Notes: generated by a model not told the origin, from the letters alone. 61,396 nucleotides of DNA from an uncultured Planctomycetales bacterium (GCA_964624155.1 CAZUWM010000003.1:1-61396), one strand, 5' to 3'. Shown: positions 2,331 through 44,205, numbered from the stretch's first letter. Made by a program: numbers and translations.

Positions 2331-2732
2331 ATGTATCGCGTGACGAAAGTCATTCACTTCTGCTACGGTCATCGCCTCCTGAACTACCAGGGCACATGCC
2401 GCTACCTCCACGGGCACAACGGCAAGGTGGAGATTGAACTCGAGGCCCGCCAACTCGACCGGCGGGGGATGGTGCGGGATTTCAGCGAGATGAGATACAA
2501 GCTTCAGGGGTGGATCGACGCCCATCTTGACCACAAAATGATCCTCCATCATGATGATCCCGCGCTGGCAGCGCTGCGTAAGATGAAGGAACCGGTCTAC
2601 GTGATGGAAAGGAATCCGACGGCCGAGAACTTGGCCCAGTTGCTGTTTGAGCAGGCGAAACGGTTAGGGTTCCCTGTGCGGGCTGTGCGACTGTGGGAAA
2701 CCGCCTCGTCGTTCGCCACCTATCAGCGCTAG
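2331..2732 (+). CDS. queD: 6-carboxy-5,6,7,8-tetrahydropterin synthase (PTPS family)
   Basis: FCYGHRL, CRYLHGHN, LDHK, PTAENLA, WETASS motifs. Confidence 0.9.
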   Translation: MYRVTKVIHFCYGHRLLNYQGTCRYLHGHNGKVEIELEARQLDRRGMVRDFSEMRYKLQGWIDAHLDHKMILHHDDPALAALRKMKEPVYVMERNPTAENLAQLLFEQAKRLGFPVRAVRLWETASSFATYQR

Positions 2733-3943
2733 CGGTTCGTCGAATCGGCCGAGAGTTGTGCGCGTAGTTGGTCGAGCACCGGTTGGAGGACCTCTTTGAA
2801 GGAGGGTGAGGCGTATCGGATCGCCTGCTCTAAATCGTCCGAAGCCCCTTGGCGATCACCGAGTTTCAACCGGGCGGCCGCCCGGTCGTGATACACTTCA
2901 ACCGCTGAGGGATTCAGTTCGAGCGCTTTCGTATAATCCGCAAGGGCTCCATCCACATCGCCCTGGCGACCCTTCAGGATCCCACGAGTGTAGTAGACCG
3001 CCCATGTCTCTTCTTCCGGATACTCTGCGGTCAGTTCGATCACCTTGGTGTAATCCGCGATCGCTCCGCTCACCTCCCCGATCTTCTGAAGGACATCAGC
3101 TCGTTGCAGATAGACCTCAATCGCCTCCCCATCCGCTTCTAAGGCTTTGGCGTAATCAGCCAACGCCCCCTCTCGATCGCCCTGCGTGAGACGGACGTTC
3201 CCCCGCCCAACATACGCGCGAAATTCGTCGGGTGCCAGCTCGATGGCTTTGGTGTAATCCGCGAGGGCTTCTTCCAATTGTCCCGCGTGTTGATGGGCAA
3301 CCGCTCGACCGCGATAGGCGTCTTCGTTCTCCCGAAGTTCCACCTGTCGCGTGTAATCCGCAAGGGCTCCCTCGACATCGCCTTGCTCCAGTCGGACAGC
3401 CGCTCGATTGCCATACGCGAGATCGAGGTACGGATCGAGCTCGATGGCCTTGGTGTAATCCGCCATCGCCCCCGCGAGATCGTCTGTTCGTTTCAAGGCG
3501 TTGCCTCGATTGCGATACGGCTCGGCTTCCTCCGGCTCCAGCTCGATGGCTTTCGAGAAATCGACGATCGCGGATGCTGTTTCGCCGCGTTGCAACTGGA
3601 CGAGTCCTCGGTTGCGATACGCCGACACAAAGGCTGGATTCAACTCGATGGCTCTGGTGAAATCCTGCAGCGCTTCCTCGAGCTGCCCTTGATACGCATA
3701 CGCGACCCCGCGACCATGGTGGGCTTCGGCGTAGGTCGGATCGCGCTCGATGGCCTTGGTGTAGTTGGCAATCGCCTCCTCGAATTGATCGATGTCCTGG
3801 TATCCCACCCCGAAGACGTAATACGTCTGCGCATCGTCATCATCCGCCCGGCACAGATGACACAGAGACAGAGCAAACACACCACAGAGTACACAGATAA
3901 CACAGAGAATTTTTCTGTACCCTCTGTGGTGTGTTGTTCTCAT
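2729..3943 (-). CDS. Secreted tetratricopeptide-repeat protein
   Basis: About ten TPR units (A..NRG..A.ADYTKAIEL.P); hydrophobic Cys-rich N-terminus. Confidence 0.9.
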   Translation of the reverse strand: MRTTHHRGYRKILCVICVLCGVFALSLCHLCRADDDDAQTYYVFGVGYQDIDQFEEAIANYTKAIERDPTYAEAHHGRGVAYAYQGQLEEALQDFTRAIELNPAFVSAYRNRGLVQLQRGETASAIVDFSKAIELEPEEAEPYRNRGNALKRTDDLAGAMADYTKAIELDPYLDLAYGNRAAVRLEQGDVEGALADYTRQVELRENEDAYRGRAVAHQHAGQLEEALADYTKAIELAPDEFRAYVGRGNVRLTQGDREGALADYAKALEADGEAIEVYLQRADVLQKIGEVSGAIADYTKVIELTAEYPEEETWAVYYTRGILKGRQGDVDGALADYTKALELNPSAVEVYHDRAAARLKLGDRQGASDDLEQAIRYASPSFKEVLQPVLDQLRAQLSADSTNR

Positions 3944-3960
3944 CTCTGTGATCTCTGTGA
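3851..3960. repeat. CACAGA/TCTGTG palindromic repeat element, copy in the TPR gene 5' end
   Basis: Multiple CACAGA units followed by multiple TCTGTG units; shares ttctgtaccctctgtgg with 37819-37835. Confidence 0.75.
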
Positions 3961-4800
3961 CTTACGGCGGAGGAGATCGGTGGCGGCGCGGCTGCCTTCG
4001 CTCAGCAGGGAGCCCATTTTCGGGTGGCTGGGCTCGAAATCAACCGGCACGTCGTGTCGCGTCAGCGCTTCAGAACAAATCGGACCCACTGAGGCGACGA
4101 CAACGCGTCGTCGAACGGCCGCTCGCAACGTGGCGTCCATCTCCATCTCGCGAGCGACGTGCATCAGGTGATCGACTTGGGTCGCTGAGGTGAACAGCAA
4201 CACATCGGCCTGCCCGTGGCAGATGGCGCGAATCGCCTCTCGAAGCGGACCCGTGTCTTCGGGAAGGGCCCACCGATAGACCGGCACGCGCATCACCTCG
4301 GCTCCGCGCGTCTTCAATCCCTGAAGGAGCTCGTCGTTTGTGACGCCATATTCCTGCACCGCCACCCGCTTGCCCTGCACCGGGCACTGGCTGTCCAATG
4401 TCGTCAAGATATCGCGCCAGGTATTGGGCTCCGGGACGGCAATCGTGGGTTTGAGTCCGACCTCTCCCAACGCAATGATGGGTTTTGGGCCGCGCACCAC
4501 CAGGGTCACGCGACCCAGCGCCTGGATAATCTGCTCGTTGGGATACGTCGTGGCGAGGGCTGCGATGAGGGTACGTGTGCCGACCCCGGTCAGGAGGATC
4601 ACGACATCAAGCGAGCCATTGAACAGGCGCGTGGCGAAGGCCAGGGCTTCGTGCTGATCCGTAAGCGGCACTTCCCGCATCGAGGGCGCAACGAACGGCT
4701 CGCCCCCAAATCGACGAATCAGCCGATGCATGTCTTCTGCCCGTCGGCTTTCAAACGCCACGACCCTCAACCCACCGAAATCAGTCGCCGTCGTCATCAC
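3940..4800 (-). CDS. hemD: Uroporphyrinogen-III synthase
   Basis: VAFESRRA, LTGVG, RGPKP, VYRW, FTSATQV, SVGPICSEAL, HPKMG. Confidence 0.85.
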   Translation of the reverse strand: MMTTATDFGGLRVVAFESRRAEDMHRLIRRFGGEPFVAPSMREVPLTDQHEALAFATRLFNGSLDVVILLTGVGTRTLIAALATTYPNEQIIQALGRVTLVVRGPKPIIALGEVGLKPTIAVPEPNTWRDILTTLDSQCPVQGKRVAVQEYGVTNDELLQGLKTRGAEVMRVPVYRWALPEDTGPLREAIRAICHGQADVLLFTSATQVDHLMHVAREMEMDATLRAAVRRRVVVASVGPICSEALTRHDVPVDFEPSHPKMGSLLSEGSRAATDLLRRKSQRSQR

Positions 4801-5155
4801 CCGTCACCCGTGTCCGAGTCACCTCGACGCTGGCGGAGTCAATGGTGGGTACGGCCCGTTTGGTGACACGCACCGTCACTCGAGGCGTGGGGAACTCCTG
4901 CAGAACGACCGCCGCGATCTCCTCAGCGACCGTCTCGAGCAAGCGATGGGCCTGTCCTTGGACATGGCGGCTCACCACTCCTACCACGGCCGCGTAGTCA
5001 ATCGCCTCCCGGACGTCATCATGGGCCGCGGCACGTGCGGCATCAATCGCCAATTCCAGATCAATCCCAATCCGCTGGGGCGCGGCGCGTTCCGCCTCGG
5101 TGACCCCGATCCGACACGGCACCACCAACCCGTTAAGGCACAGCTTATCGTTCAT
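4781..5155 (-). CDS. folB: Dihydroneopterin aldolase
   Basis: IGVTEAER..PQRIGIDLEL, IDYA, LLETVAE, VRVTK. Confidence 0.9.
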   Translation of the reverse strand: MNDKLCLNGLVVPCRIGVTEAERAAPQRIGIDLELAIDAARAAAHDDVREAIDYAAVVGVVSRHVQGQAHRLLETVAEEIAAVVLQEFPTPRVTVRVTKRAVPTIDSASVEVTRTRVTGDDDGD

Positions 5156-5690
5156 TGAGGAGCCGGCTGAGCACCGCGGTGAGGTTCGATTCCAGCCCTC
5201 CGCGATACCCGCTTTTGTCGTACACGATCCGTCCCTCCTGATCGATCACAAACAACCGGGGGATGCTGTGGACCCCGTACAGCCTCGCCACCTGAAACTC
5301 TCGGTCGAGCAGAATCGGCGCCGTGAACCGCTTCTCCGCCCACCGCTGGATGGTTTCGGCGGTTTCTCCCTGGTTGATAAGCAGGACCACGACACCCCTG
5401 TTGCGAAACATTCGGTAGATGACTTCTAACGAGGGAGTCGAGTACCGACACGGCCCACACCAGGTCGCCCAAAACTCCATGACCACGACTCGGCCTCGGT
5501 ACTCCGACAGGCGGACGGTCTCACCCCTCAGCGTCTGGAGGTCAAACTCTGGCGCGGCCGGACGAGGGTCAAGCGGCGTCCAGTCTGACATCTCTGGAGC
5601 GCACCCAACCACCAACCACGCGAGTGCTACGATCAACCAAGTCTTGCAAACGCAAAGTCGCAGGAATCTAGGAAAACTGGAATGGTCCAC
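5145..5690 (-). CDS. TlpA/ResA-type thiol-disulfide reductase (lipoprotein)
   Basis: FWATWCGPC thioredoxin motif, SIPR cis-Pro loop, lipobox VVGC. Confidence 0.9.
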   Translation of the reverse strand: MDHSSFPRFLRLCVCKTWLIVALAWLVVGCAPEMSDWTPLDPRPAAPEFDLQTLRGETVRLSEYRGRVVVMEFWATWCGPCRYSTPSLEVIYRMFRNRGVVVLLINQGETAETIQRWAEKRFTAPILLDREFQVARLYGVHSIPRLFVIDQEGRIVYDKSGYRGGLESNLTAVLSRLLNER

Positions 5691-5698
5691 TTTCTTCC

Positions 5699-6514
5699 CT
5701 ACCCACTGATGATATCTCGTGGGTTTATTCTCCTACCCTCAGAAGGCTGAACCTTTTTCCAGAGATCAGGAAAATAAGTCGATGTCCTGGTTAGAATCCC
5801 GCTTTTCGTATCCGTGATCGGTTCCAACCTAAATGGCCTTGAGGCCCAAGTCGCATCTTTTGCAAGCGGATAGTATTTGAGTTGCCCGCCTGATTCTCCA
5901 TACCACTCGAAAAGCGTGCCATGTTTGTCATCGCCTTTCAGGCAGCGTGTGGTAGAAAAGTACCACTTCAATGTCTCGGCTTTTGGTAAGGCGATCTTGA
6001 ACTGATGCAATTGATACAGGCCTTGCCTGTTCCACGATAGCACAAGATAAAAGCTCTTTTGGAGGTTAATAATCCCGCCACGCTGCGCGCTGACCGCTTC
6101 ATGCCAGCTTTCCACCAGATCGATCAGTTCCTTGCCAACAAGTTTTGGTCTTTTCAAGTAGGTTTTCGGGGTCATCCCTTGTGCCCCAAGTTGTCTCCAA
6201 AATTTTCCTGCTGAGTTCGAAAGCTCAAAAGAAACTCGTCCTGTTGTCACCAGCTTGTTTAGCTCTCGCCTCATCTTACAGGCAACTCCAAACCTGACTG
6301 TAGAATCGACTGCGATCGGAACGATGACATCAAAAATTGATTTGTTTTCCTGCGCTTCGCCAGAGAAAACGACGGCAACCGTACGCTCAAAATCTCTCCA
6401 GCCTGGCAGAGTTAAGCCGCCCTTCTGGGTCAGCATGCCTGAGCCATCCTGGTAGACGCTCAGTATCAGTCGAATTCGCTCAACTTCTTTCTCGGTAGGT
6501 ATTCTGAAATCCAT
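5699..6514 (-). CDS. Putative type II restriction endonuclease (PD-(D/E)xK-like)
   Basis: WRDFER...FDV...GVACK resembles a nuclease core; lies behind an HTH gene and opposite a DNA MTase; AT-richer than flanks. Confidence 0.6.
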   Translation of the reverse strand: MDFRIPTEKEVERIRLILSVYQDGSGMLTQKGGLTLPGWRDFERTVAVVFSGEAQENKSIFDVIVPIAVDSTVRFGVACKMRRELNKLVTTGRVSFELSNSAGKFWRQLGAQGMTPKTYLKRPKLVGKELIDLVESWHEAVSAQRGGIINLQKSFYLVLSWNRQGLYQLHQFKIALPKAETLKWYFSTTRCLKGDDKHGTLFEWYGESGGQLKYYPLAKDATWASRPFRLEPITDTKSGILTRTSTYFPDLWKKVQPSEGRRINPRDIISG

Positions 6515-6518
6515 GCCC

Positions 6519-6767
6519 TCAACGCTTTAGCTTCAACTCATCACGTAAAAGCTGATCAATGGTCACACCGAAAAAGTCTGCAACTTTTAACACCAGATCC
6601 ACAGTAGGCTTTTTCTTGCCAGATTCGATCTCGCTGAGGTATCCGTGCGCTGAGTAACCAAGTTTCCGTGCAAGGTCTTTGAGAGTTAGCCGCCTTTGCA
6701 GGCGAAGCGAACGGAGTTTCTCACCAAATTTTCGTATCGTTCTGTCCCTCGAAATCCCTCTTGACAT
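6519..6767 (-). CDS. XRE-family HTH protein, probable R-M controller (C) protein
   Basis: FGEKLRSLR..RLTLKDLA..GYLSEIESGKKKPTVD; directly upstream of the putative REase. Confidence 0.8.
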   Translation of the reverse strand: MSRGISRDRTIRKFGEKLRSLRLQRRLTLKDLARKLGYSAHGYLSEIESGKKKPTVDLVLKVADFFGVTIDQLLRDELKLKR

Positions 6768-6806
6768 CCAAAACCAAATTTGCTATTCTGTCTCTAATAG
6801 AGACAG
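6761..6806 (+). promoter_or_regulatory. Sigma70 promoter of the MTase overlapped by an 8-bp inverted repeat (candidate C-box/operator)
   Basis: TTGACA(6761)-N17-TATTCT(6784) with TGn; CTGTCTCT-aat-AGAGACAG at 6788-6806. Confidence 0.65.
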
Positions 6807-6834
6807 CCTTTTGAACACTCGGAAATTAGAGCAG

Positions 6835-7788
6835 ATGGAAATTGTGACCTCCCACCGCCGTCGTAAGCCGATCAACAGCCCATTGAAGTGGGTAGGCGGT
6901 AAATCGCGTTTACGGAAAGCTATCATCAGCTTACTTCCCGATCATACCTGCTATGTGGAACCCTTCGCCGGAGCCGCCTGGGTACTTTTTGGTAAATCTC
7001 CAAGCGATGTCGAGATCTTGAACGATATCGACCAAGAATTGATTACGTTCTTTCGCGTCGTTAAAGAACGACCCGACGATCTCATAGCTTCTTTTGAGTG
7101 GGAACTTGTTTCGAGGGCAGAGTTTGAAAGACTCGCCAATCTCGACCCTCAGACGCTTGACCCTATGCAGCGGGCGCATAGATTTTACTACCTCATTATG
7201 GCAGGATGGGGCGGTGAATTGAACTATCCTCGTTTTGCCACAAGCATCACCGATGGTGGGCATGGCAACCGTCTCATCGGCGCACTCAAGACCTTGCGTG
7301 CTCGTTTGGAACCTGTCTATGAACGACTCAAAACCGTTATCATTGAAAACCTAGACTGGCAGGAGTGTGTGGATCGTTACGATCGTCCTGGTACGCTTTT
7401 ATACCTTGATCCACCCTACCCTGGTAACGGCTGTAACTATGCTCATAATATGCGTTCTTGGGACGCTCATGAGAAGTTAATTGAGAGACTCAAGCAAACT
7501 CGGGCGAAATGGATTTTATCGTCCTACGACATACCAGAAATGCGCGGTTTCTTCTCTGATCATTTCATCGTTTCTGTCAGATCGTCATCGGGAATGAAGG
7601 TAAAGAAAAATGATAATTCGAGAGTCTTGAACGAGGAAATCCTGGTAACAAACTTTTCTCCCAAGACAAACTCACAGTATATTACCGCTCAGAATTCCCA
7701 GTTAACGTTGTCTTTGGGAGACGCCGTGGCGGAACCCGATTCGATTTATAGGGCTGGAAAAAAATTCTTCGTTCTCCAGCCTTCCTGA
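6835..7788 (+). CDS. DNA adenine methyltransferase, Dam/D12 class
   Basis: PLKWVGGKSRL, YVEPFAGAA, ILNDID, YLDPPY. Start chosen at ATG 6835 downstream of the promoter. Confidence 0.9.
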   Translation: MEIVTSHRRRKPINSPLKWVGGKSRLRKAIISLLPDHTCYVEPFAGAAWVLFGKSPSDVEILNDIDQELITFFRVVKERPDDLIASFEWELVSRAEFERLANLDPQTLDPMQRAHRFYYLIMAGWGGELNYPRFATSITDGGHGNRLIGALKTLRARLEPVYERLKTVIIENLDWQECVDRYDRPGTLLYLDPPYPGNGCNYAHNMRSWDAHEKLIERLKQTRAKWILSSYDIPEMRGFFSDHFIVSVRSSSGMKVKKNDNSRVLNEEILVTNFSPKTNSQYITAQNSQLTLSLGDAVAEPDSIYRAGKKFFVLQPS

Positions 7789-7812
7789 TTTCATTTGCTT
7801 CTCTCGCTTTTG

Positions 7813-9573
7813 TCACTCCTCCATGGTGGAGATGTCCCCGACAGGAAGCCCTTGATCCCACGCGCGCAAGACGCGGCGCATGATCTTGCCGGAGCGCGTC
7901 TTGGGGACTTTCTCGACGAAGTCGATCTCTCGGGGAGCGGCGTGCGCGGCCAGATTGTTCTTCACAAAATCGGCGATCTCTTTCTTGAGTGGTTCCGACG
8001 GCTGATAGCCTTTTCGAAGCGCGACGAACGCCTTGATGATCTGCCCCCGCACCTCATCGGGCTTGCCGATGACACCGGCTTCGGCCACCGCCGGATGCGC
8101 CACCAGCGCGCTTTCGACCTCGAACGGCCCCACGCGCTCACCGGAGGTTTTAATCACGTCGTCGGCTCGTCCCTGATACCAGATGTAGCCGTCTTCGTCC
8201 TTGAACGCGCTGTCGCCGCTCACGTACCAGCCGGGGATGCGGAAGTACTCCTGGTACTTCGCCGGGTTCTTCCAGATTGACTGCATCATCGAGGGCCACC
8301 CCGGCTTCACCACCAAATGTCCCAGTTGGCCGGGGGGCAACTCCCTGCCTTGATCATCGACGACGCTCGCATAGGTGCCAGGAAACGGCTTGCCGGTGCA
8401 GCCGATCTTGAAATCGTAGCTGCGATAATTGCAGATGAGCTGCATGCCGGTTTCGGTCATCCACCAGGTTTCATGCGGGGCCAGGCCGGTGATTTTCTTG
8501 ATCCACTTGAGCGCCTCGGGGTTCAGCGGCTCGCCGACGCTGCAAATGTGCCGCAGACTGGAGAGATCATACTGTTTGGGAATGGCCTCTCCTGCTGACA
8601 TGAGCATTCGATAGGCGGTCGGCGCACTGTACCACATCGTCACCCGGTACTTCTGGATCGTCTGATACCATCGGTCCGCATCAAACCGGCCGCCGAGGAC
8701 GACGCTGGTGATCCCCAGCGTCCACGGCCCGTAAATTCCATAGGAGGTTCCTGTCACCCAACCTGGATCCGCGGTGCACCAGAAGCAGTCGTCGTCGCGC
8801 AGATCAAGCGCCCATTTCGCGGTCTGGTAATGGCCCACCATGGCGTACTGGCGATGGAGCGCCCCTTTCGATTTGCCGGTTGAGCCGGAGGTGTAGTGAA
8901 TAATCAGGCTGTCGTCTTTGGTCAACCACTCCGGCTCGCACTGGTCTGACGCGTTCTTCATCTGCGCGTCATAGCTGATCTCACCGGCGGCGAGCGGCCC
9001 TTCGGCACCGACAAGGATGAGGTGTTCCAGCGCCGGAAGGGATTGACGTGGGATGCGCCCTTTCAGCGAGGGAGTGGTCACGCAGGCGATGGCCTCGCTG
9101 TTTTCCAATCGATCCTGGATAGCCTGCTCCATGAAGGCTTCGAACAACGGAACAGGGATTGCTCCAATACGATTAATGCCAAGGATGGCGAGATAGAGCT
9201 CCGGCGTGCGCGGGAGGAACGTCCCCACTCGGTCACCCTTCTTGACGCCAAGCTGTTTCAGGACGTTGCCGAAGCGGCTTGAAAGGGCTTGCAGATCGGC
9301 GAAAGTGTAGCGCTCATCGCGTTTCTCAAGGTCAGTGTAGAAGAGAGCGACTTTGGTACGTCGGAGGGAGGAGGCGTGACGATCGACGGCTTCATGGACC
9401 ACGTTGACCTTGCCGGTCGTGAACCAATCGAATTCCCGCTCAACGTCCTCCCACCGAAACGTGCGATAGGTCGCGTCGTAATCCTTGAGATTAGCGTCGA
9501 TGATCTTGGGCTTGCGTTCCCACTCGACCTGCGCGGCCATTGAAGTAGGCGATTCAACTGGAGAGTCTGCCAT
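7813..9573 (-). CDS. acsA: Acetate--CoA ligase
   Basis: YTSGSTGKSKG, WCTADPGWVTG, WWMTETG, PKTRSGKIMRR. ATG at 9573 overlaps the nuoH TAA (TAATG). Confidence 0.93.
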   Translation of the reverse strand: MADSPVESPTSMAAQVEWERKPKIIDANLKDYDATYRTFRWEDVEREFDWFTTGKVNVVHEAVDRHASSLRRTKVALFYTDLEKRDERYTFADLQALSSRFGNVLKQLGVKKGDRVGTFLPRTPELYLAILGINRIGAIPVPLFEAFMEQAIQDRLENSEAIACVTTPSLKGRIPRQSLPALEHLILVGAEGPLAAGEISYDAQMKNASDQCEPEWLTKDDSLIIHYTSGSTGKSKGALHRQYAMVGHYQTAKWALDLRDDDCFWCTADPGWVTGTSYGIYGPWTLGITSVVLGGRFDADRWYQTIQKYRVTMWYSAPTAYRMLMSAGEAIPKQYDLSSLRHICSVGEPLNPEALKWIKKITGLAPHETWWMTETGMQLICNYRSYDFKIGCTGKPFPGTYASVVDDQGRELPPGQLGHLVVKPGWPSMMQSIWKNPAKYQEYFRIPGWYVSGDSAFKDEDGYIWYQGRADDVIKTSGERVGPFEVESALVAHPAVAEAGVIGKPDEVRGQIIKAFVALRKGYQPSEPLKKEIADFVKNNLAAHAAPREIDFVEKVPKTRSGKIMRRVLRAWDQGLPVGDISTMEE

Positions 9574-26511: not shown

Positions 26512-26540
26512 TTGATGGTCCAAGAAGAATGAGGTATAAT
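26512..26540 (+). promoter_or_regulatory. Sigma70 promoter of the riboswitch leader
   Basis: TTGATG(26512)-N17-TATAAT(26535) in an AT-rich intergenic region. Confidence 0.65.
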
Positions 26541-26621
26541 TACTTTACAATTTAGAAGTTTAGAAAAGGTTAGGTAATCTCACGATAAATCCGCCACAGG
26601 GCATGGCGGACCCGCCAGGCA

Positions 26622-26749
26622 AGTTGGCGGGGGCAAATCCCGAGCGATCGGGAGACGTCCTGAAAGGGATCCCCCCAGGGTTGATTCGCGAGCGAATCAT
26701 GGGGGGGCAAAGCCGCGGATCCTACGAACGGACAGCCGGGCTGCCGAAC
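26622..26749 (+). ncRNA. c-di-GMP-I (GEMM)-like riboswitch with a 50-nt insertion
   Basis: GGCAAA-TCCCGA-GCGA-TCGGGA-GAC-[26657-26706]-GCAAAGCCGCGG..GGACAGCCGGGCTGCCGAA matches the GEMM layout. Confidence 0.75.
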
Positions 26750-26823
26750 CCTTCGACAGGCTCAGGGTTCAGTCCTGAGCAGAGTCGAAGGACCGAAGAG
26801 AATCGGCAGCCCGGTTTTTGTTT
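26736..26823 (+). terminator. Intrinsic terminator overlapping the aptamer 3' strand
   Basis: CCGGGCTGCCGA (26736-47) pairs perfectly with TCGGCAGCCCGG (26803-14), followed by TTTTTGTTT. Confidence 0.75.
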
Positions 26824-26835: not shown

Positions 26836-29800
26836 ATGCAACGTAGATCACAGCATCCCTTCCTTAATATACTCCTCAGTGCAGCCCTTGTGGTTGGACA
26901 GGGCCAACCAGTTGCGCTGGCGGCCGACCGTCGCTCCTCTTTAACCCCCTCACCCTCGCCAACCCCATCACCAACCCCGGATCCCACTCCTTCGCCGACG
27001 CCTTCCCTCTCTCCCTCACCCACGCCGGCCGCCCACCCAGGACGGACCGCCCCTCCTGCGCGATCCGCCGTCACGCTGCAATCAACCCTTGGACGGGCAG
27101 CCTCGGCGGCGTCCACCGTTGGTCCTGCGACGACCGTTCCAACGGGTTTCAGTGACGTCTACGTGCGCGGCACGCAGCTCATGGTCCGCCGCCGGCAGGC
27201 TGACGGCTCGCTGGCCGAGGCACAGCCATACCTCGTCAAAGGTGTCACATGGTCACCGGCGACACGGGCGCCGAGGGACGGGCCCGATCCACGGACTGGC
27301 AGACTCGTGCCGTATGGCTTCTTCTTCGACGGCCCCTGGCGCGCCCCCGGCTTGCAGGGCTACGAGCTGCTGGGCTACTGGCAGCGCGCGCGGTTCGCCG
27401 CGCATTACGCCGCCGATCTCGCCCTCATCGCGCAGATGCACGCCAACACCGTGCGCGTCTACACGGATCTGGGCAACACCCCCGCCGAGGGGCTGCGCGT
27501 GCTCGATGAGTGCTACCGCCGCGGCATCATGGTCATCCTGACCGTGGCATCAGCCAAGGAGGACGTCGACAGCGGCCGCTACCTCGAGCTGGTCAAACGC
27601 TACAAGGATCACCCCGCCATCCTCATGTGGTCGCTGGGGAATGAATGGAACCTCAATCGCTACTTCGGCTATACCATCGATGAGGCGATCCGCGCAACCG
27701 ACTCAGCCGCGCAGACCATCAAGCAACTCGATCGGATGCACCCCGTCACCTCGTCGCTTTCGGATCGCTTCACGGAGGGACGCGACGGCATCACCTGGAT
27801 CGTCCGAAACGTGCCGTCGGTCGACGTGTGGGGGCTCAATGTCTACCGGGGGGCCAGCTTCGGCAACCTCTTCAGCCAGTGGAATGCCATCACGACGAAA
27901 CCGTGTTACCTCAGCGAGTTCGGCACCGACTCCTTCTTTACCCAGCGCTACAAGACGGTGAACGGCTTCCAGGCAGATGACGTCGTCGGACAGGAAGATC
28001 GCCCACGACAGGCGGAGTATGTCCTGGGGCTTTGGAAGGAGCTAAAACTCCGTCTCTCTGCTCTCGATCCCACGAAACGCTGCCTCGGCGGCGCTGTCCA
28101 TACGTTCCAGGACGCCCTCTATTTCGTCGGCTCGTTCCACTTCGGCCTCGGCGGACTCGTCGACTACGACGGCCCTGACCGAAGACCGGGAACGGCTGAC
28201 GATGACACGAGCTACGACGAGTACAACCCCGAGGGCTTGGTGATCGTCGGCGGCCATCCGGATCACGTCGCCAACGAAGAATACTTTGGCCTCGTGGACG
28301 CTGATCGGAATCCTAAACCTGCCTACACCGCCTTGCAGCAGCTCTACGCTCAACTCTCTGTCCCTCCGACGGTCGCCAACCGCCCGCCCGTCCTGGAACC
28401 CATTCCCAATCAGACCGCGAGAGTCGGCGAGGCGAAGACCTTTCCCGGCCTGCTGCGCTTCTCTGACCCCGACGGCCAGGTCCCGACCTTTGTGGTCGTC
28501 AGCGGCGGACCGAACGGTCTCGTCGTGCGCCCGACTCCGACCGTCCCCGGTGTGGCCGACGTGTTCTGGCCCGCCGTCCCTCAACCCGGCACCTGGACGT
28601 TGACCGCCATCGTCCCGGATCCCCAGGAGGGCAATCTCAATGGCCCGCTCGCCGCCCGTCGCCAGTTCACCGTGAGCGTGCAGGCCGCGAATCGCCCTCC
28701 GATCGTCGCATCCTGTGAGACCACGGAAGACGCCTCGCTCATGACCTTATCGTTTGAAGACGTCATGCGCTGTCTGACCGATGCCGCCGTTTCGGAGCCG
28801 TCAAAACGACGTCTCGTTGGCATCCGGGCTGCGCCGACTACCCAGAACCATCTGACCTCACGCCAGGTCTTCACCCTCTTGACCCACCCACAGGTGCCTG
28901 ATTCGGTGAAGGCGGTCACTGTGCAGCTTCGGCGATTCGATCCAGGCGTTGTTGCGATGCAACAGGGGTTCCAAACGATCCTAATCCGTCCGGAGGCAGA
29001 TTTTTCCACTCCGCCTCAGACCGTGGAGACGTTTTTCAGCGCCATCACCAACGTCTACGGCTTCACCGCCGCGTTCAAGCAATACATGCAGTCAGAGTTG
29101 TTTTTCAAAGGGAACAACTTACAATCAGAGGAGCTTGGCAACGGCTACGGTGAGAATCTATTGGTCCTGGTTAGTTCCGGCGCGCACTGGCTCGCCGTCC
29201 ACGAACTCGATCACACATTCTGGGAATGGGAACGCGCGCAGAAAGGGCCATCGATCACTGAAGCGCTCATCCACGCGGTGTATGACGTCGCCACTGGCCG
29301 CATCCCTGTGGCGAAAGCGGAGATCGCCCAGCGTGCTCGCGAGGCGTTGTTCGACCGACACCCCAACGCGTTCCCCCCGAAAGCCGATCAGGCGATCTAT
29401 TCGTGGGAGGAGGTTAAGGCGAAACTTGATGCCATCGATGGCCTCCACGTCCGAACGGCCTTTTGGCCGTGGACCGTGACACGAGAACTGCCTCCTGAGC
29501 TATGGCGATTTTGGAGCGGCATGCTCGGTCCAGAACTCCCACCGGCCACGCGTCACCAGATTCGCCTCGGTAGTCCTAGCGGTCCACCTCCATCAAACAC
29601 CCCAGCAGCCAACCGGCCGCCGACGATTCAGTGGACCAAGGTCTACGATCCAGGTGGATCGATCCTCGGCTTCGTCACCGGCCGGCCGATCACCTTCGAA
29701 GCACAAGCGACTGATCCGGACGGCAAGACCGTGACCTACACATGGGACTTCGGCGATCAGACGACCGCCACCGGCTCAACCGTGCAACATCCCTACGCCC

Positions 29801-30048
29801 GTCCAGGCTCTTATACCGTGACCCTGCGCGTGAGCGACGGCCAGTCCACAGCGACGAAATCAATCCCGATCACCGTCCAAGCCACCAACCCGCCGCCGGT
29901 TGCCGGACAAAATGGGCCGCAGCCTGGCGTGACCGCTGATTCCTCCCTCCCCCAGCGCAAGACGACCCCCACGCGACAACCGGCGGGGCGAGATCCTGCC
30001 CGCCCCGGCATAACGGGTCGGGCCGGGGAGCCTGTCGAAGGACCGTGA
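26836..30048 (+). CDS. Large secreted protein: clan GH-A (GH2-like) barrel, Ig-like module, HExxH region, PKD domain
   Basis: Signal peptide, P/S/T linker, ANTVRVY, LGNE, YLSEFG, NRPPVLEPIPNQT, HELDH, YTWDFGD..H.Y..PG.YTVTLRV. SD GAGGT before ATG 26836. Confidence 0.85.
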   Translation: MQRRSQHPFLNILLSAALVVGQGQPVALAADRRSSLTPSPSPTPSPTPDPTPSPTPSLSPSPTPAAHPGRTAPPARSAVTLQSTLGRAASAASTVGPATTVPTGFSDVYVRGTQLMVRRRQADGSLAEAQPYLVKGVTWSPATRAPRDGPDPRTGRLVPYGFFFDGPWRAPGLQGYELLGYWQRARFAAHYAADLALIAQMHANTVRVYTDLGNTPAEGLRVLDECYRRGIMVILTVASAKEDVDSGRYLELVKRYKDHPAILMWSLGNEWNLNRYFGYTIDEAIRATDSAAQTIKQLDRMHPVTSSLSDRFTEGRDGITWIVRNVPSVDVWGLNVYRGASFGNLFSQWNAITTKPCYLSEFGTDSFFTQRYKTVNGFQADDVVGQEDRPRQAEYVLGLWKELKLRLSALDPTKRCLGGAVHTFQDALYFVGSFHFGLGGLVDYDGPDRRPGTADDDTSYDEYNPEGLVIVGGHPDHVANEEYFGLVDADRNPKPAYTALQQLYAQLSVPPTVANRPPVLEPIPNQTARVGEAKTFPGLLRFSDPDGQVPTFVVVSGGPNGLVVRPTPTVPGVADVFWPAVPQPGTWTLTAIVPDPQEGNLNGPLAARRQFTVSVQAANRPPIVASCETTEDASLMTLSFEDVMRCLTDAAVSEPSKRRLVGIRAAPTTQNHLTSRQVFTLLTHPQVPDSVKAVTVQLRRFDPGVVAMQQGFQTILIRPEADFSTPPQTVETFFSAITNVYGFTAAFKQYMQSELFFKGNNLQSEELGNGYGENLLVLVSSGAHWLAVHELDHTFWEWERAQKGPSITEALIHAVYDVATGRIPVAKAEIAQRAREALFDRHPNAFPPKADQAIYSWEEVKAKLDAIDGLHVRTAFWPWTVTRELPPELWRFWSGMLGPELPPATRHQIRLGSPSGPPPSNTPAANRPPTIQWTKVYDPGGSILGFVTGRPITFEAQATDPDGKTVTYTWDFGDQTTATGSTVQHPYARPGSYTVTLRVSDGQSTATKSIPITVQATNPPPVAGQNGPQPGVTADSSLPQRKTTPTRQPAGRDPARPGITGRAGEPVEGP

Positions 30049-30122
30049 TCCCTGATCCATAAATAAACCCGAGATTGCTATGCATCATCAGATGTGGTAT
30101 TTTACGCAGTGAAGGTAACCCC

Positions 30123-30323
30123 ATGCGTACCACCCTTGATCTGAATGAGAAGTTGTTGTCCCAAGCCATGGCGGCTGCACACACGAAGACGAAGAAAGCA
30201 ACGGTGGAGCGATCGTTGCGTGAATTGATCCGCGCCGCCCACATCGAACGGCTCATCACCCGACGCGGAGAGGGGACGACGCTGACCCTCCGCACGCTGT
30301 CCCGCATGCGTCGGGATGCGTAA
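30123..30323 (+). CDS. vapB: VapB-family antitoxin
   Basis: MRTTLDLNEKLL..AM..TKTKKATVERSLRELI; promoter TTGCTA-N17-TATTTT at 30075-30103. Confidence 0.85.
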   Translation: MRTTLDLNEKLLSQAMAAAHTKTKKATVERSLRELIRAAHIERLITRRGEGTTLTLRTLSRMRRDA

Positions 30324-30735
30324 GCCGCTCGTCTTGGTCGATTCGTCCATCTGGATTCCCTTCCTGCGGAGTCGAACAGCCGATCCGGCGGCGGAACTCC
30401 TGATGGGGCTGCTTCGTGACAAGCGGGTCGCGACCAACTGGCTGATCCGGCTGGAACTGCTCAGTGGAACGGCCACACACCAGGCCTATGAGTCGCTCGA
30501 TGCAGATCTGGCCGCGCTCCATCAGCTCCCGCTGACAGAGAAGGTGTTTCACGCGGCCAGCCTGCTACGATGGCGGCTCCATCGCAAGGGTGCTTCCATT
30601 CCGGTGGTCGATACCCTGATTGCGGCCTGCGCCATCTTCTACGCTTGCCCACTGCTGGAAGACGATGCTCACTTCCGACTGATCGCCAAACACGCCCCGC
30701 TTCATCTTCATCTTTCGTCAGGGCTCCACATTTGA
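30316..30735 (+). CDS. vapC: PIN-domain toxin
   Basis: LVDSSIWI, ELLSG, VDTLIAACA, LLEDDAHF. Confidence 0.9.
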   Translation: MRKPLVLVDSSIWIPFLRSRTADPAAELLMGLLRDKRVATNWLIRLELLSGTATHQAYESLDADLAALHQLPLTEKVFHAASLLRWRLHRKGASIPVVDTLIAACAIFYACPLLEDDAHFRLIAKHAPLHLHLSSGLHI

Positions 30736-30891: not shown

Positions 30892-31256
30892 TTGGAAATC
30901 CGAGAATTCAGGAGGAGAGATGACCACGAAAATCGTCACCTCGCCGGTCGGCGCGAAAGCCCAGGTTACCCTCCCGAAACTCGTGCGGGAGGCGCTGCAT
31001 TTGACGGCGCAGCAGGACTTGGTTGGCTTCGTGATCTATGGAGGCCGCGTGGCATTGACGCGCATCGAACCGGTGCCCTCCAGCGATCCGTTCACGGACG
31101 AGGAGTGGAAGAAGATCGACCGGCTGACTTCCCAGACCCCCGCCGCCGTGGCAGAGAACGCCGCGGATTCCTTGCGCTACTTGAAGCGTCATCTCGGCCG
31201 CGCGTAATGCGGTATGCCTATCAACCTTCGTTTCTCGAGACCACCCGCCATCTCTC
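30892..31256 (+). repeat. 365-bp direct repeat, copy 1 (copy 2 at 32192-32556)
   Basis: Appears identical at an offset of exactly 1300 bp; identical 95-aa translations. Confidence 0.92.
30920..31207 (+). CDS. AbrB/MazE/SpoVT-fold antitoxin, copy 1
   Basis: KAQVTLPKLVREALHL..DLVGFVI..GRVAL; AGGAGG SD. Confidence 0.8.
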   Translation: MTTKIVTSPVGAKAQVTLPKLVREALHLTAQQDLVGFVIYGGRVALTRIEPVPSSDPFTDEEWKKIDRLTSQTPAAVAENAADSLRYLKRHLGRA

Positions 31257-31371
31257 TTACGCCCAAGCGACCAAGCTGTTGAAGGCCATCCAGAAGTTCC
31301 AGCATGCTATTGAGACGTCCCAGTGGCCTCAGGGGTTAGGCCTCACGCATCTGCGCAACGAGGATGGATAA
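31207..31371 (+). pseudogene. Truncated RelE/ParE-like toxin (54 aa)
   Basis: Homologous to the N-terminal half of 32507-32782; stops at HLRNEDG*. Confidence 0.7.
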
Positions 31372-32105: not shown

Positions 32106-32220
32106 TCTTTCATACCAGCTTTCCTTAACCAGCCACAACACAACCTCTTCGATCCCTTGACACGACCGACCTACCCTGGTTATACTTATAGTTGGAAATC
32201 CGAGAATTCAGGAGGAGAGA

Positions 32221-32507
32221 TGACCACGAAAATCGTCACCTCGCCGGTCGGCGCGAAAGCCCAGGTTACCCTCCCGAAACTCGTGCGGGAGGCGCTGCAT
32301 TTGACGGCGCAGCAGGACTTGGTTGGCTTCGTGATCTATGGAGGCCGCGTGGCATTGACGCGCATCGAACCGGTGCCCTCCAGCGATCCGTTCACGGACG
32401 AGGAGTGGAAGAAGATCGACCGGCTGACTTCCCAGACCCCCGCCGCCGTGGCAGAGAACGCCGCGGATTCCTTGCGCTACTTGAAGCGTCATCTCGGCCG
32501 CGCGTAA
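32221..32507 (+). CDS. AbrB/MazE/SpoVT-fold antitoxin, copy 2 (ATG at 32220)
   Basis: Identical to 30920-31207; promoter TTGACA(32157)-N18-TATACT upstream. Confidence 0.8.
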
Positions 32508-32782
32508 TGCGGTATGCCTATCAACCTTCGTTTCTCGAGACCACCCGCCATCTCTCCCCCACGCAAGCAACCAAACTCCTGAAGGCGGTGGAGCGATTCC
32601 AGGCGGCGCTTGAAAGCCGCCAATGGCCCAAGGGATTAGGCGCCACGCATCTGCGAGATGACTATTTTGAATTCCGCGCGGACCTCCATACGCGGGTGAT
32701 CTACCGACGGAGCCGTGACCTGATTCAGTACGTCTTGTGCGGCAGTCACGACGAGGTCAGGCGTTTCTTGAAAACGCGGTAA
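32507..32782 (+). CDS. RelE/ParE-like toxin (91 aa)
   Basis: TAATG coupling to the antitoxin; Y..SFL, LRDDYFEFRADLHTRVIY, GSHDEV. Confidence 0.75.
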   Translation: MRYAYQPSFLETTRHLSPTQATKLLKAVERFQAALESRQWPKGLGATHLRDDYFEFRADLHTRVIYRRSRDLIQYVLCGSHDEVRRFLKTR

Positions 32783-42003: not shown

Positions 42004-44205
42004 TCACCGAACCGCATCAAGGAGTTCCACCATCTTCGCGACATCGGTGGTCGGCAGATTACACAGATAGTTCTGGCAGACGTAGGCGGTGGATTGGCCC
42101 TGAAGCGGTAGTTGATTCGCCACAAACGGGATCAGGGCTTCGATCGCGCTGGCCTTTGACCCGCTCGGATGAAACGCCGCAACCGCTCTGGGGAGGAAGC
42201 GACGGTGAACCGCCTGAATCATGGACTGAGTCTGTGGAGTGGAGGGATCGCCGGCGATGACGATCTCTTGCGAGGGGCCCAGCCAATGATCCAGGGCGAT
42301 GAGAAACTGGGGAAAGGCGTGCGGAGCGCGGGCCACCTCTCCCGAGAAGGCTTCGATGAGCCGCTTCGCCTTCTCCTGCAGGACGTCATCCATCGTCAGC
42401 GTGCCTAAGCGAACCAACACCAGGGCGGCCACCGAGTTGCCTGACGGAACCGCGCCGTCGTACAACTCCTTGGTGCGGGCGATGAGGGTTTCATTCTTGG
42501 CGCCGCCCAGGAACAACCCGCCTGAGGAGTCATCCCAGAAGAGCCGCACCATCTCGTTCGTCAACCGTTTCGCCTCCGAGAGCCAGCGCGCGTCGAACGT
42601 CGCCTCGTAGAGCTCCAGCAAGCCCCAGCTCAAGAAGGCGTAGTCATCGAGGAACGCTGGGATGGCGGCTTCCCCGTCTCGATAGCGATGCAGGAGCCTC
42701 CCCTTCTGTTGAAGACGATCCAGCACGAATGACGCCGCCCGCGTCGCCTCCTCTGCATACTGCGGCTCTCCCAACGCTTTGGCCCCGTAGGCGAGGACGC
42801 CGATCATCAGGCCGTTCCAGTCGGTGAGGATTTTGTCATCGCGGTGCGGCCGCTTCCGACGGTTTCGAGCCTCCAACAGTTTGGCCCGCGCGGCGTCAAG
42901 CCGCGTCTGAACCGACGGGTCGGGGGATGTCGCCGTCGTCAGAATCGTCGTGCCGTTCTCTCCGCCAAACTGATTGGCGGATCCGCCATGCTGTGTGGCG
43001 GAAAAGTTCCCGGCCAGCGTCACGCCAAACGCTTCCATGACGAAGGCGGCGTCTTCCTCGCCAACCACCGTCTTGATCTCCTCCGGCGTCCAGACGTAAA
43101 ACTCCCCTTCCTTCCCCACCTCGCCAGCATCCTCTGCGGAATAGAACGCGCCCTCGGGACCGCGCAGATCCCGCAGCACGTAGGTGAAGATGTCCCTCGC
43201 CGTCTGGGCGTACGAGGCGTTGCCGGTCACTTGATAGGCTTCGAGGTACGTCCGCGCCAGCAGCGCCTGATCGTAGAGCATCTTCTCAAAATGCGGGACC
43301 AGCCACTGCTCATCTGTCGAGTAGCGGTGGAAGCCTCCGCCCAGATGGTCGTGAATGCCGCCCCGCGCCATGGCATCCAGCGTTTCCTCGACCATCTTCA
43401 GCAGCTGGGGATCGCGCTGCCGATACCACACCCTCAACAGGAACGACAGCGCATGGCTGCGGGGAAACTTCGGGGCTGAGCCGAATCCGCCATGGGTGGG
43501 GTCATACTGGTTGCTGAACTGGACCGCCGCGGTTTGCAGTGTTTCAAGGCCCACGGACGACGAGACGGTGCGTTCGGCGCCGGCCTGCAGAGCTTGGGTA
43601 ATGGATTGACTCGAGGTGAGGAGGTCGTGGCGTTTGGTCTGCCAGGACTCGTGGATCGAGCGCAAGACCGTCTTGAACCCCGGTCGGCCGAACGCGTCCT
43701 CCGGAGGAAAATACGTCCCACCCCAAAACGGTTTGCCCTCCGGAGTCAAGAACACGGTCATCGGCCAGCCGCCTTGCCCCGACATCGCTTGGACCGCGCT
43801 CATGTAGAGCGCATCGAGGTCGGGACGCTCCTCCCGATCGACCTTGATCGAGACAAACCAGTCGTTCATCAATTTGGCAATCTCTGGACTCTCGAAGGAT
43901 TCCTGCTCCATGACATGACACCAGTAACAGGTGGAATAGCCGATAGAGAGCAGGATCGGCTTGTCTTCCCGCTTGGCGCGGGCCAACGCCTCCTCCCCCC
44001 ATGGATACCAGTCCACGGGGTTGTGGGCGTGCTGCAAGAGGTAGGGACTCTTTTCTTTAATCAGGCGATTGGATTGGCGAGCGGTCTGTTCCTGCGCCAT
44101 GCGCGTGGGCTCTGTAGTGGTCCGTGGACGGATGCCGGCCACCCACAGGGTAGCCGCCATCCCGGCGACCACGGCCATCAACAACCACCACTTCCTTTTT
44201 ACCAT
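42004..44205 (-). CDS. YyaL/SPATA20-like protein (DUF255 thioredoxin plus alpha/alpha-barrel)
   Basis: [58 protein letters not shown]. Confidence 0.93.

Follow-up and report, generated by a model that had tools for sequence, protein, structure and literature searches.

The window, by which we mean the whole 61,396-nucleotide (nt) stretch of DNA from an uncultured Planctomycetales bacterium analysed here, contains a gene that probably encodes a secreted, modular, retaining glycosidase of clan GH-A, set behind a c-di-GMP-I riboswitch leader that has been invaded by hairpins and equipped with an orphan module that leans away from a zincin peptidase. In the proposed arrangement, a signal peptide and a P/S/T-rich linker would precede the catalytic barrel, which would be followed by an Ig/cadherin-like module, a 90-amino-acid (aa) stretch, the orphan module of about 210 aa and a PKD domain. 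The features of the gene and its leader are listed in Table 1.

Table 1. Features of the glycosidase gene and its leader (positions counted from the first nucleotide of the window)
Feature	Position	Strand	Remarks
Sigma-70-like promoter candidate, TTGATG-17-TATAAT	26512..26540	+	Consensus match only, 10/12; block conserved with L001
c-di-GMP-I (GEMM-I) type aptamer, split by two insertions	26581..26749	+	Rfam 26.3 bits; custom covariance model 40.5 bits, E 1e-8
Insertion A, 42-nt double-hairpin element E	26590..26631	+	UCCGCC-loop-GGCGGA and CCCGCC-loop-GGCGGG; between CACGAUAAA and GGCAAAUCC
Aptamer 5' core	26632..26657	+	GGCAAA, P2 hairpin UCCCGA-GCGA-UCGGGA (GNRA loop) and GACG
Insertion B, 50 nt, two hairpins	26658..26707	+	Between GGAGACG and CAAAGCC
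Aptamer 3' core	26708..26749	+	CAAAGCC, P3 helix, GCUGCCGAA; about 90% identical to L001 989-1025; the Rfam-aligned part
Intrinsic terminator	26734..26823	+	Stem CCGGGCUGCCG/CGGCAGCCCGG around an additional inner hairpin, then UUUUUGUUU
CDS, modular secreted glycoside hydrolase (secretion predicted)	26836..30048	+	1070 aa; ORF list and translation
Sec-type signal peptide, predicted	26836..26922	+	aa 1-29, ALA/AD; read from sequence
P/S/T-rich linker	26938..27060	+	aa 35-75; read from sequence
Clan GH-A catalytic domain	27130..28380	+	aa 99-515; short N-terminal beta segment and (beta/alpha)8 barrel
Ig/cadherin-like beta-sandwich module	28351..28680	+	aa 506-615; sub-threshold Pfam Cadherin_4 (E 0.001-0.002) and Big_9
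90-aa stretch	28681..28950	+	aa 616-705; opens with linker motif ANRPP; no family match
Orphan module of about 210 aa with HELDH	28951..29580	+	aa 706-915; one relative
HELDH pentapeptide	29200..29214	+	aa 789-793; identical in P0121
PKD domain	29668..29877	+	aa 945-1014; Pfam PKD and PKD_4, E 2e-19 to 6e-19
P/T/G-rich C-terminal tail	29878..30045	+	Read from sequence

Translation of the window gave a frame that runs uninterrupted from the ATG at 26836 to the stop codon at 30046-30048, and an identical assembly of the gene and its contig was recovered from a second, independent run. The sequence GAGG lies 4 nt 5' of this ATG; starting instead at the TTG at 26818, which falls inside the U-run of the terminator, would lengthen the protein by 6 aa. 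The N-terminus, MQRRSQHPFLNILLSAALVVGQGQPVALA followed by AD, has by reading the pattern of a Sec signal peptide, from which we infer secretion, and the N-terminus of the orthologue (at locus L001) could be aligned with it after correction of the orthologue's start. No cell-surface sorting signal was recognised in the 1070-aa protein. These results agree with an earlier reading made from the sequence alone, which had recognised the signal peptide and the linker and whose coordinates for the open reading frame and the motifs GNE(W), SEFG and HELDH proved exact.

The barrel belongs to clan GH-A, as it combines the (beta/alpha)8 fold with an Asn-Glu acid/base pair on strand 4 and a Glu nucleophile on strand 7. 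GNEW occupies aa 268-271 (nt 27637) and SEFG aa 360-363 (nt 27913); E270, at the end of strand 4, would serve as the acid/base, and E361, on strand 7, as the nucleophile. A Pfam search placed the GH2 TIM barrel (GH2_C) above its cut-off (E 3e-10 to 2e-11). About 118 homologues of the glycosidase were found, the majority labelled Omnitrophota, with similarity confined to the GH domain. The family to which the barrel belongs is large, uncharacterised and well represented in Omnitrophota, and, going by the labels of these relatives, the gene itself probably stems from an Omnitrophota bacterium. In 29 aligned homologues, both catalytic Glu residues are invariant and the Asn of the acid/base motif is nearly so (N171/E172 and E263 in alignment numbering, the two Glu corresponding to E270 and E361 of the protein). 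The AlphaFold model of the domain (pLDDT 87.9, pTM 0.90) shows strands alternating with helices and both Glu at barrel strand ends, GNEW following strand 164-169 and SEFG lying in strand 259-264. In a Foldseek search with this model, 230 PDB structures matched at E <= 0.001; barrels of GH2 and GH158 ranked highest, all at probability 1.0, and a PDB profile search put GH158 first (E 1.6e-16). The clan GH-A barrel and its two Glu motifs, already named in the sequence-only reading, are supported by family search, alignment, structure prediction and structure comparison alike. The closest structures, of GH2 and GH158, share only 14-21% identity with the domain at TM-scores of 0.44-0.55, and no characterised enzyme exceeds 21% identity, which is too low for a substrate to be named.

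Beyond the barrel, the PKD domain was confirmed at high significance (PF00801, 68.4 bits against a cut-off of 23.5; PF18911, 69.8 bits), and PKD domains of collagenases in the PDB match it at E 4e-17. The Ig-like module proposed earlier was borne out weakly, with Cadherin_4 and Big_9 below their cut-offs. It is conserved in the orthologue as far as nt 28655, where DNA similarity between the two loci ends; a segment of the tail (nt 29949-29998) matches the L001 DNA directly after the orthologue's stop codon. P0002, which at 64% identity is the nearest relative, instead combines GH, Ig and fn3, and the domains added in other family members are dockerin, fn3, CARDB, ILEI and, in one case, a subtilase. 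The C-terminal half is thus freely exchanged among relatives in this GH family. A region of about 280 aa that had been delineated between the Ig-like module and the PKD domain does exist, yet it consists of two parts: aa 616-705 (87-90 aa), which matched no family, gave no homologue and does not resemble the Ig module before it, and aa 706-915, which one other protein also carries.

That other protein, P0121, is the single relative of the orphan module in 1.84 billion representative proteins (residues 931-1157, 78% identity), and a metagenome scan yielded no further ones. P0121 is a giant secreted SBBP/CARDB/ChaN-like protein of 1890 aa from another Omnitrophota MAG, and its gene is in a syntenic position, upstream of vapBC. 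Comparison of the two copies gave a Ka/Ks of about 0.10, indicating purifying selection, and the module is a real, selected domain. Searches of Pfam, NCBIfam and PADLOC relaxed to E <= 10 left it without a match, and PHROGs gave just two chance-level, non-peptidase entries. The weak PDB matches were near chance, namely, limonene epoxide hydrolase (NTF2-like; E 0.004) and NKG2D (C-type lectin). Fold prediction from the two available sequences failed (AlphaFold pLDDT 44), and a Foldseek search with this low-confidence model gave no match at E < 1.

Could this module be a peptidase? The sequence-only reading had described it as HExxH metallopeptidase-like and the protein as a dual enzyme attacking glycan and peptide. 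In its explicit form, this reading makes aa 706-915 a new gluzincin-like metallopeptidase in which H789 and H793 bind zinc, E790 acts as the base and a residue such as E809 (in SITEALIH) is the third ligand, directed at the glycan and peptide of glycoproteins, S-layers or matrix; we consider it quite unlikely. In its favour, HExxH arises in only 1.3% of shuffles of the glycosidase protein, HELDH is the sole HExxH in the 25,790 aa of the window's open frames, and it lies within the best-conserved stretch of the module, a core about 90% identical to P0121. Judged from the sequence, a strand-like LLVLV, then SSGA, the motif and a Glu 16 residues past H793 are compatible with the strand-helix-helix of gluzincins; the low-confidence model places helices at HELDH, and GH-protease fusions do occur, since P0023 joins this GH to a subtilase. 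Against this, no peptidase relative was found by family, profile or structure search at any threshold, and the weak PDB matches are unrelated folds. HELDH does not fit the extended zincin signature (PROSITE PS00142 type) because of D792, as that pattern excludes Asp at the fourth position of the motif; chance alone would place a Glu within 8-28 residues in most sequences; and with a lone homologue at 78% identity, conservation of the pentapeptide is uninformative. The pentapeptide is the only evidence for a metallopeptidase, and the dual activity finds none beyond it.

The competing explanation, to which we give close to an even chance, holds that the module is a non-catalytic accessory domain, binding a glycan or surface or acting as a spacer, that HELDH is incidental and that the protein is a glycosidase with a single activity and with targeting modules. 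The module is flanked by beta-sandwich modules, as binding modules usually are: its neighbours are Ig and PKD in the window protein, and CARDB and a propeller-like region in P0121. Aromatic residues are frequent in it (8 Trp, 13 Phe and 5 Tyr in 210 aa), the two folds to which it shows weak PDB similarity are small and ligand-binding, and the relative P0002 does without it. However, those similarities contradict each other, no carbohydrate-binding family was matched, and the low Ka/Ks and near-invariant HELDH core would suit an active site equally well. On balance, the module is more likely to have an accessory role, in binding or structure, or to be an enzyme other than a peptidase, than to be a zincin. 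Since HExxH is rare and falls where the module is best conserved, a catalytic metal site may nonetheless exist, and as a secondary, novel reading the HELDH module may be the founder of a new metallohydrolase family.

Upstream of the gene, transcription would start about 300 nt before the coding region and proceed through the c-di-GMP-I aptamer. An Rfam search at the gathering threshold returned nothing in the window; there was only a sub-threshold match to c-di-GMP-I-GGC (26.3 bits against a threshold of 59), at 26670-26749. The orthologous leader at L001 has a genuine c-di-GMP-I aptamer, scored at 71.5 bits, with a terminator 3' of it. When 26590-26631 and 26658-26707 were spliced out in silico, the window leader kept 35 of 36 invariant columns, defined as those constant in four bona fide aptamers, and was identical to L001 at 64 of 74 positions; the single altered invariant position keeps a GNRA loop. 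The 5' core corresponds to GGCAAAUCCGCC-GCAA-GGCGGAGACG of L001 with compensatory changes in the stem, and the minimum free energy fold of the full leader retains the core topology of L001. Four runs yielded identical assemblies of the leader. Upstream aptamers were also detected at the loci of two distant homologues of the GH family (L027 and L065; 61 and 65.5 bits); among 80 other loci of the family these 2 alone have the aptamer, which makes the link between aptamer and family sporadic. These data show that the window leader descends from a c-di-GMP-I riboswitch. The terminator has a folding energy of -53 kcal/mol (z -6.9), and L001 has the same stem and U-run without the inner hairpin. Its 5' arm (26734-26747) is the aptamer 3' strand, and folding showed the aptamer and the terminator pairing to be mutually exclusive; the leader thus has an expression platform that competes with the aptamer, of the same design as in L001. 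Because the aptamer 3' strand doubles as the terminator 5' arm, ligand binding would be expected to block termination, making this an ON switch.

Both insertions are absent from L001, and insertion B folds as self-contained hairpins. Other contigs of runs X2 and X3 have insertion B as well, there placed after the 5' half of a canonical aptamer. Pattern searches located element E in more than 120 metagenome contigs, including others of the same samples, where we estimate that about 0.1 occurrences would be expected by chance. Its hosts are diverse, comprising tRNA genes, other riboswitches and one protein gene of the window, which it enters in frame and whose homologue lacks it. E strongly prefers tRNA D-arm loops and riboswitch junctions, and its loop-proximal pairs exceed the shuffled expectation. 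No transposase partner was recognised for it, although GIY-YIG-like ORFs often adjoin its copies, tRNA-associated ones only. No clear target-site duplication was seen at the two copies in the window. Being multi-site, non-coding, hairpin-forming and absent from orthologous sites, E is a small palindromic repeat of the MITE/REP/RPE-like kind, and our literature search found no published description of a 42-nt double-hairpin element.

Whether such a leader still responds to its ligand bears on the riboswitch control claimed in the sequence-only reading, of which the ancestry stands (the L001 score and the 35 conserved columns), whereas the Rfam gathering threshold was missed and the two insertions had been overlooked. 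Present-day c-di-GMP control of the window gene is plausible but unproven, since the insertions interrupt the aptamer at its ligand-binding three-way junction. They adjoin the nucleotides that contact c-di-GMP in the Vc2 structure, so binding may be lost; on the other hand, the core nucleotides are intact, and the switch may still work. We regard it as a possibility, to be entertained tentatively, that the insertions abolished binding and left a constitutive terminator or attenuator or a long structured 5' untranslated region. The fall in Rfam score, with 71.5 bits at L001 against 26.3 bits in the window, speaks for such a loss, as do the insertions in both junction strands with ligand-contacting bases and a third one that lengthens and stabilises the terminator, favouring the OFF state. 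It is opposed by the survival of all but one invariant position and by the compensatory changes in P2, which argue for ongoing selection. Moreover, E sits at the same AAA/GG site in at least nine further metagenomic aptamers of the c-di-GMP-I type, five of the tested ones still pass the Rfam gathering scores, and paralogous leaders bear the same insertions in the same samples. A bolder reading, rather doubtful in our estimation, is that the leader continues to function as a c-di-GMP riboswitch despite a 42-nt mobile double hairpin and a 50-nt hairpin pair in its junction strands, and that E represents an undescribed class of tiny mobile elements that colonise RNA loops and junctions (tRNA D-loops, c-di-GMP-I and FMN aptamers) and enter proteins in frame without killing them.

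Compared with known systems, the leader resembles the c-di-GMP-I riboswitch (GEMM-I; Rfam RF01051, variant RF03167; Vc2 of Vibrio cholerae), as the core AAAGGCAAA, the P2 hairpin with its GNRA loop, GACGCAAAGCC, P3 and GCUGCCGAA are all found in the window, a terminator overlapping the aptamer lies 3' of the core in both, and the orthologue scores above the Rfam threshold. GEMM-I riboswitches often precede genes for secreted and surface proteins. The window leader differs in junction strands split by 42 and 50 nt, in the third insertion in the terminator loop and in its sub-threshold score.

For the enzyme, the GH158 endo-beta-1,3-glucanases (BuGH158, PDB 6PAL; GH158(Pro), PDB 9ORO/9P25) resemble the window protein in their clan GH-A barrel and in a retaining chemistry that uses two Glu residues. 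They gave the best PDB profile match, covering strand 4 to strand 6 with GNE, and a Foldseek probability of 1.0 at about 21% identity. Membership in GH158 is nevertheless not established, as the sequence match spans only about 100 residues, the TM-score is only 0.44, and the window family has an additional N-terminal beta segment and long C-terminal modules. GH2 beta-glucuronidases and beta-galacturonidases (e.g., PDB 6NCW, 6U7I and 3K46) were the best Foldseek matches (E 3e-13, TMq 0.51-0.55) at 14-20% identity; a Pfam search of the window protein did not detect their N-terminal sugar-binding and immunoglobulin-like domains (PF02837, PF00703), and the domain order and modular tail are different. 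Gluzincins fused to glycan-binding modules (M60-like/enhancin, HExxH...E) likewise combine HExxH and a downstream Glu, here 16 residues on, with a secreted multi-module protein that handles glycans. In contrast to them, the orphan module has no sequence, profile or structural similarity to peptidases and an atypical fourth-position Asp, and its membership is not established.

Element E recalls the Rickettsia palindromic elements and REP/MITE-like repeats in being multi-copy and non-coding and in residing both in frame in a protein gene and in RNA genes. Rickettsia palindromic elements, of about 100-150 nt, insert in frame in genes and in RNA genes. E is much shorter (42 nt), has a pair of direct hairpins in place of a single long palindrome, and is set apart by its preference for tRNA D-arms and riboswitch junctions.

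The locus consists of a modular, predicted clan GH-A enzyme and a GEMM-I leader, both of known kinds, with two features that could not be placed, an orphan protein module and an aptamer invaded by hairpins, of which the invaded aptamer is the more surprising. The observations made in the sequence-only reading were largely right and their interpretation was half right: the glycosidase, the modules and the riboswitch ancestry hold, while neither the metallopeptidase nor the "dual attack" is supported.

Features of the window gene, its leader and its surroundings, in window positions; leader parts are compared with L001, the locus of the closest relative
Feature	Position	Strand	Basis or remark
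Open reading frame of the window gene	ATG 26836 to stop 30046-30048	+	1070 aa, one long open reading frame
GNEW	aa 268-271, nt 27637	+	Translation
SEFG	aa 360-363, nt 27913	+	Translation
HELDH	aa 789-793, nt 29200-29214	+	Translation
Leader, 5' part	CACGAUAAA, then 42-nt insert 26590-26631	+	Leader comparison
Leader, next part	GGCAAA-UCCCGA-GCGA-UCGGGA-GACG, then 50-nt insert 26658-26707	+	Leader comparison
Leader, 3' part	CAAAGCC...GCUGCCGAAC	+	Leader comparison
vapB/vapC (PIN) pair	30075-30735, 30892-31371 and 32157-32782 (region including a second pair)		Directly 3' of the window gene; 97% DNA identity to the pair at L003
Second copy of the 42-nt element	42961-43002, in frame (14 codons)	- (gene 42004-44205)	DUF255/YyaL-like thioredoxin-domain gene

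In the translated frame, GNE, SEFG and HELDH all stand where they had been reported, and an assembled copy of the gene from an independent public run is identical. An alternative start, TTG 26818, would give the protein six extra residues; ATG 26836 is preferred because GAGG stands 4 nt 5' of it, because the U-run of the terminator contains the TTG, and because the N-terminus then matches that of the L001 orthologue, P0002, after correction of its start. P0002 was truncated by the gene caller; its true start is ATG 1054 (L001 1054-3144), which adds a signal peptide and a P/T linker resembling those of the window protein.

A GH2 TIM-barrel model of Pfam matched both the full-length window protein (E = 3e-10) and its glycoside hydrolase (GH) domain by itself (E = 2e-11). 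Among 5.8 billion proteins searched there were ~120 matches, nearly all restricted to aa ~100-610 and none spanning more than 51% of the query, and in species-representative genomes a relative is encoded at 266 loci, the best of them mostly labelled Candidatus Omnitrophota. Across an alignment of 29 diverse members, GNEW and SEFG each keep an invariant Glu, and the Asn is nearly invariant. Searching the PDB with this 29-member profile placed GH158 first (E = 1.6e-16, over ~100 residues around the acid/base motif), followed by GH42, GH2 and GH5. The AlphaFold model built on the same alignment (pLDDT 87.9, pTM 0.90) has E270, the assigned acid/base, just past a barrel strand and E361, the assigned nucleophile, inside one; Foldseek matched this model to GH2 beta-glucuronidases/galacturonidase (E ~3e-13, TM 0.51-0.55) and to GH158 laminarinases (~21% identity, TM 0.44). 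Pfam, the 29-member alignment, AlphaFold and Foldseek all agree with the proposal of a clan GH-A glycosidase bearing both catalytic Glu residues. Sequence and modelled structure together place the domain among the retaining clan GH-A enzymes, in a family that is uncharacterised and close to GH158 and GH2; its substrate cannot be named from these matches. This family is a large, uncharacterised clan GH-A group, abundant in Omnitrophota, which are poorly understood and possibly host-dependent nanobacteria, and an assayable substrate would offer a first functional handle on it.

Behind the barrel, both additional modules that had been proposed were recovered, an Ig-like one from Cadherin_4/Big_9 matches below the Pfam threshold at aa 506-615, a stretch kept in the closest relative, and a clear PKD domain at aa 945-1014 (E = 2e-19 in Pfam; collagenase PKD domains in the PDB, E = 4e-17). 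In three places (aa 513, 617 and 924) the linker motif ANRPP comes ahead of a module boundary. For aa 616-705, no relative was found anywhere, and no resemblance to the preceding Ig module was seen. The C-terminal half is a swappable cassette, since the closest relative, P0002 (64% identity), has the layout GH + Ig + fn3, the DNA similarity between the window and L001 stops at nt 28655, and other family members bear dockerin, fn3, ILEI or CARDB domains and, in one case, a subtilase domain.

The region containing HELDH (aa 615-935) gave no match in Pfam, NCBIfam or PADLOC at E <= 10 and two chance-level matches in PHROGs (E = 0.04 and 0.3). An exhaustive phmmer search of 1.84 billion representatives identified a single other protein, P0121 of locus L003, with 78% identity across window aa 706-931, and a back-translated scan of JGI metagenomes yielded no additional relative. 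An N-terminal HELVAH region of P0121 was rejected as a relative of the module (hhalign probability of 4%). In the codon comparison, Ka/Ks is 0.10 for the orphan module, 0.23 for the GH+Ig part and 0.08 for the neighbouring aconitase, which marks the module as a genuine domain under selection.

What this domain does has been read as zincin-type metallopeptidase activity of aa 706-915, which we consider unlikely. The motif itself speaks for it: HExxH arises in 1.3% of shuffles of the window protein, HELDH is the sole HExxH across the long open frames of the window, P0121 shares it unchanged within a module core that is ~90% identical, and a Glu is present 16 residues past the second His of the motif. 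Nevertheless, a lone homologue at 78% identity cannot demonstrate conservation of a motif, chance alone would be expected to supply a Glu further along, and Asp792 of HELDH violates the extended zincin signature PROSITE PS00142. No peptidase relative emerged from any search. AlphaFold reached a pLDDT of 44 on the two-sequence alignment, and Foldseek returned nothing at E < 1 for the resulting model; helical-bundle matches at E > 1 were discarded as noise. The only PDB similarities are weak, one to the NTF2-like limonene epoxide hydrolase (E = 0.004 by profile and 0.19 by single sequence) and the other to the C-type lectin NKG2D (two 9-bit stretches), and both, considered as fold leads, were rejected as evidence because they exclude each other and score close to chance. 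A non-catalytic accessory domain is the most likely single alternative, with prospects slightly short of even, and the remaining probability falls to some other enzymatic function. With the metallopeptidase, the supposed "dual attack" on glycan and peptide also loses its support, and a protease label should not enter the annotation of the window protein. The orphan module is a clean case of a selected, lineage-restricted domain beyond current profile and structure tools.

P0121 (1890 aa) comes from a Candidatus Omnitrophota MAG and bears the annotation SBBP repeat protein. In this protein, the module has a CARDB domain on one side and a propeller-like region on the other, and the C-terminus is ChaN/Tiki-like. 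The gene for P0121 stands 5' of a vapBC pair that shares 97% DNA identity with the vapBC pair 3' of the window gene, and the locus looks like a hotspot for exchange of different secreted mosaics. Another small gene pair occurs twice here (30892-31361 versus 32147-32775, each ~85% identical to one L001 stretch), and the region 3' of the window gene looks like a recombination hotspot. At L003, two adjacent genes (40-2376 and 2373-8045, the latter encoding P0121) share a repeated linker motif, RKS.IPQRPASTDAEVFIAQAP plus a P/T run, ahead of C-terminal domains that differ. This two-gene architecture resembles that of a polymorphic effector, and the tail of the window protein (PQRKTTPTRQPAGRD) looks like a remnant of the L003 linker motif.

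At Rfam gathering thresholds, no RNA family was matched in the window; a permissive search gave c-di-GMP-I-GGC at 26670-26749 with 26.3 bits versus a threshold of 59 bits. The orthologous leader of L001 has a 71.5-bit aptamer followed directly by the terminator and start codon, and L027 (45% identity) and L065 (37%), the loci of two distant homologues, likewise have upstream aptamers above threshold, with a small ORF between aptamer and GH gene. This ORF (L027 ~2020-2250, L065 ~1950-2220; ~76-89 aa) is conserved, carries the motif LDR[ED]E[LI]DFLD and is without a Pfam match. A covariance model built on four clean aptamers found no further case among 80 loci and scored the window leader at 40.5 bits (E = 1e-8). 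When both aptamer inserts were spliced out in silico, 35 of the 36 columns that never vary among the four reference aptamers were kept, and the single altered one preserves the GNRA loop; the spliced aptamer is identical to that of L001 at 64 of 74 positions, with compensatory differences in the P2 stem. The minimum free energy fold of 26577-26752 has the core topology of L001, the inserts forming self-contained hairpins. After the splice and the metagenome scan, a decayed or partly duplicated aptamer was rejected for two precise insertions. The c-di-GMP-I ancestry of the leader is supported by the L001 aptamer and the splice. The window aptamer itself is below the Rfam threshold, because the 42-nt element, and only this element, disrupts detection.

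The 3' strand of the aptamer (26734-26747) doubles as the 5' arm of a hairpin (-53 kcal/mol) that ends in UUUUUGUUU, and L001 has the same terminator stem without the inner hairpin. From this shared strand we infer an ON switch, in which c-di-GMP binding would lead to anti-termination. Compared with L001, hairpin insertions of ~45-50 nt occupy the aptamer junction (26658-26707) and the terminator loop (26750-26795); further contigs from the same samples contain them as well, and they are unrelated in sequence to the 42-nt element. The leader was assembled identically in four runs. Elsewhere in these samples, contigs have pieces of it beside different flanks; paralogous leaders therefore exist. 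The GH family is found recurrently, though sporadically, behind c-di-GMP aptamers, a pattern suggesting that a step of glycan remodelling belongs to a surface or attachment lifestyle, and the invaded aptamer is a natural experiment on the insertion tolerance of a riboswitch junction.

The 42-nt element has the layout TCCGCC-loop-GGCGGA + CCCGCC-loop-GGCGGG. Its scan pattern in metagenomes, TCCGCC-N4-12-GGCGGACCCGCC-N4-30-GGCGGGGG, matched at least 120 contigs, with ~0.1 chance matches estimated. Stem pairs close to the loops are in excess over shuffled controls, with G-T pairs occurring often. The element stands at the same site, between AAA and GG, in at least nine further c-di-GMP-I-type aptamers, five of which pass Rfam thresholds; it also lies within an FMN riboswitch and in tandem arrays. 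Among the matches listed, it further occurs in tRNA D-loops, between ...AGCUCAGUU and GGUUAGAGC. Such tRNAs are usually truncated 5' fragments just 5' of an intact tRNA, often with a small GIY-YIG-like ORF between, an arrangement that suggests a homing-type element aimed at the tRNA D-loop region. At loci such as L087, L105, L114, L171, L193 and L199, the fragment with the element is followed by a GIY-YIG-like ORF (MYVLRSLK.GK.YIG...) and then by the intact tRNA gene. RNA-level introns were rejected as an account of these copies, which sit in truncated 5' fragments upstream of intact tRNA genes. On two contigs bearing the element, the RNase P RNA genes are unusually long against the 367-position model (457 nt at L163 5316-5772 and 522 nt at L115 1824-2345) and may hold insertions.

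At the second window copy, a gap of 12 residues in the solved homologue 7TKV falls exactly where the element lies. None of 83 other loci examined, L001 and L003 included, carries it, and our reading is that it reached the window lineage after the split from L001. In the papers searched, no relevant description of the element was found. We take it to be a small palindromic mobile element, and it looks like a previously undescribed mobile repeat targeting loops of structured RNAs, apparently widespread and disruptive to RNA-family detection. Its behavior is comparable to that of the Rickettsia palindromic elements.
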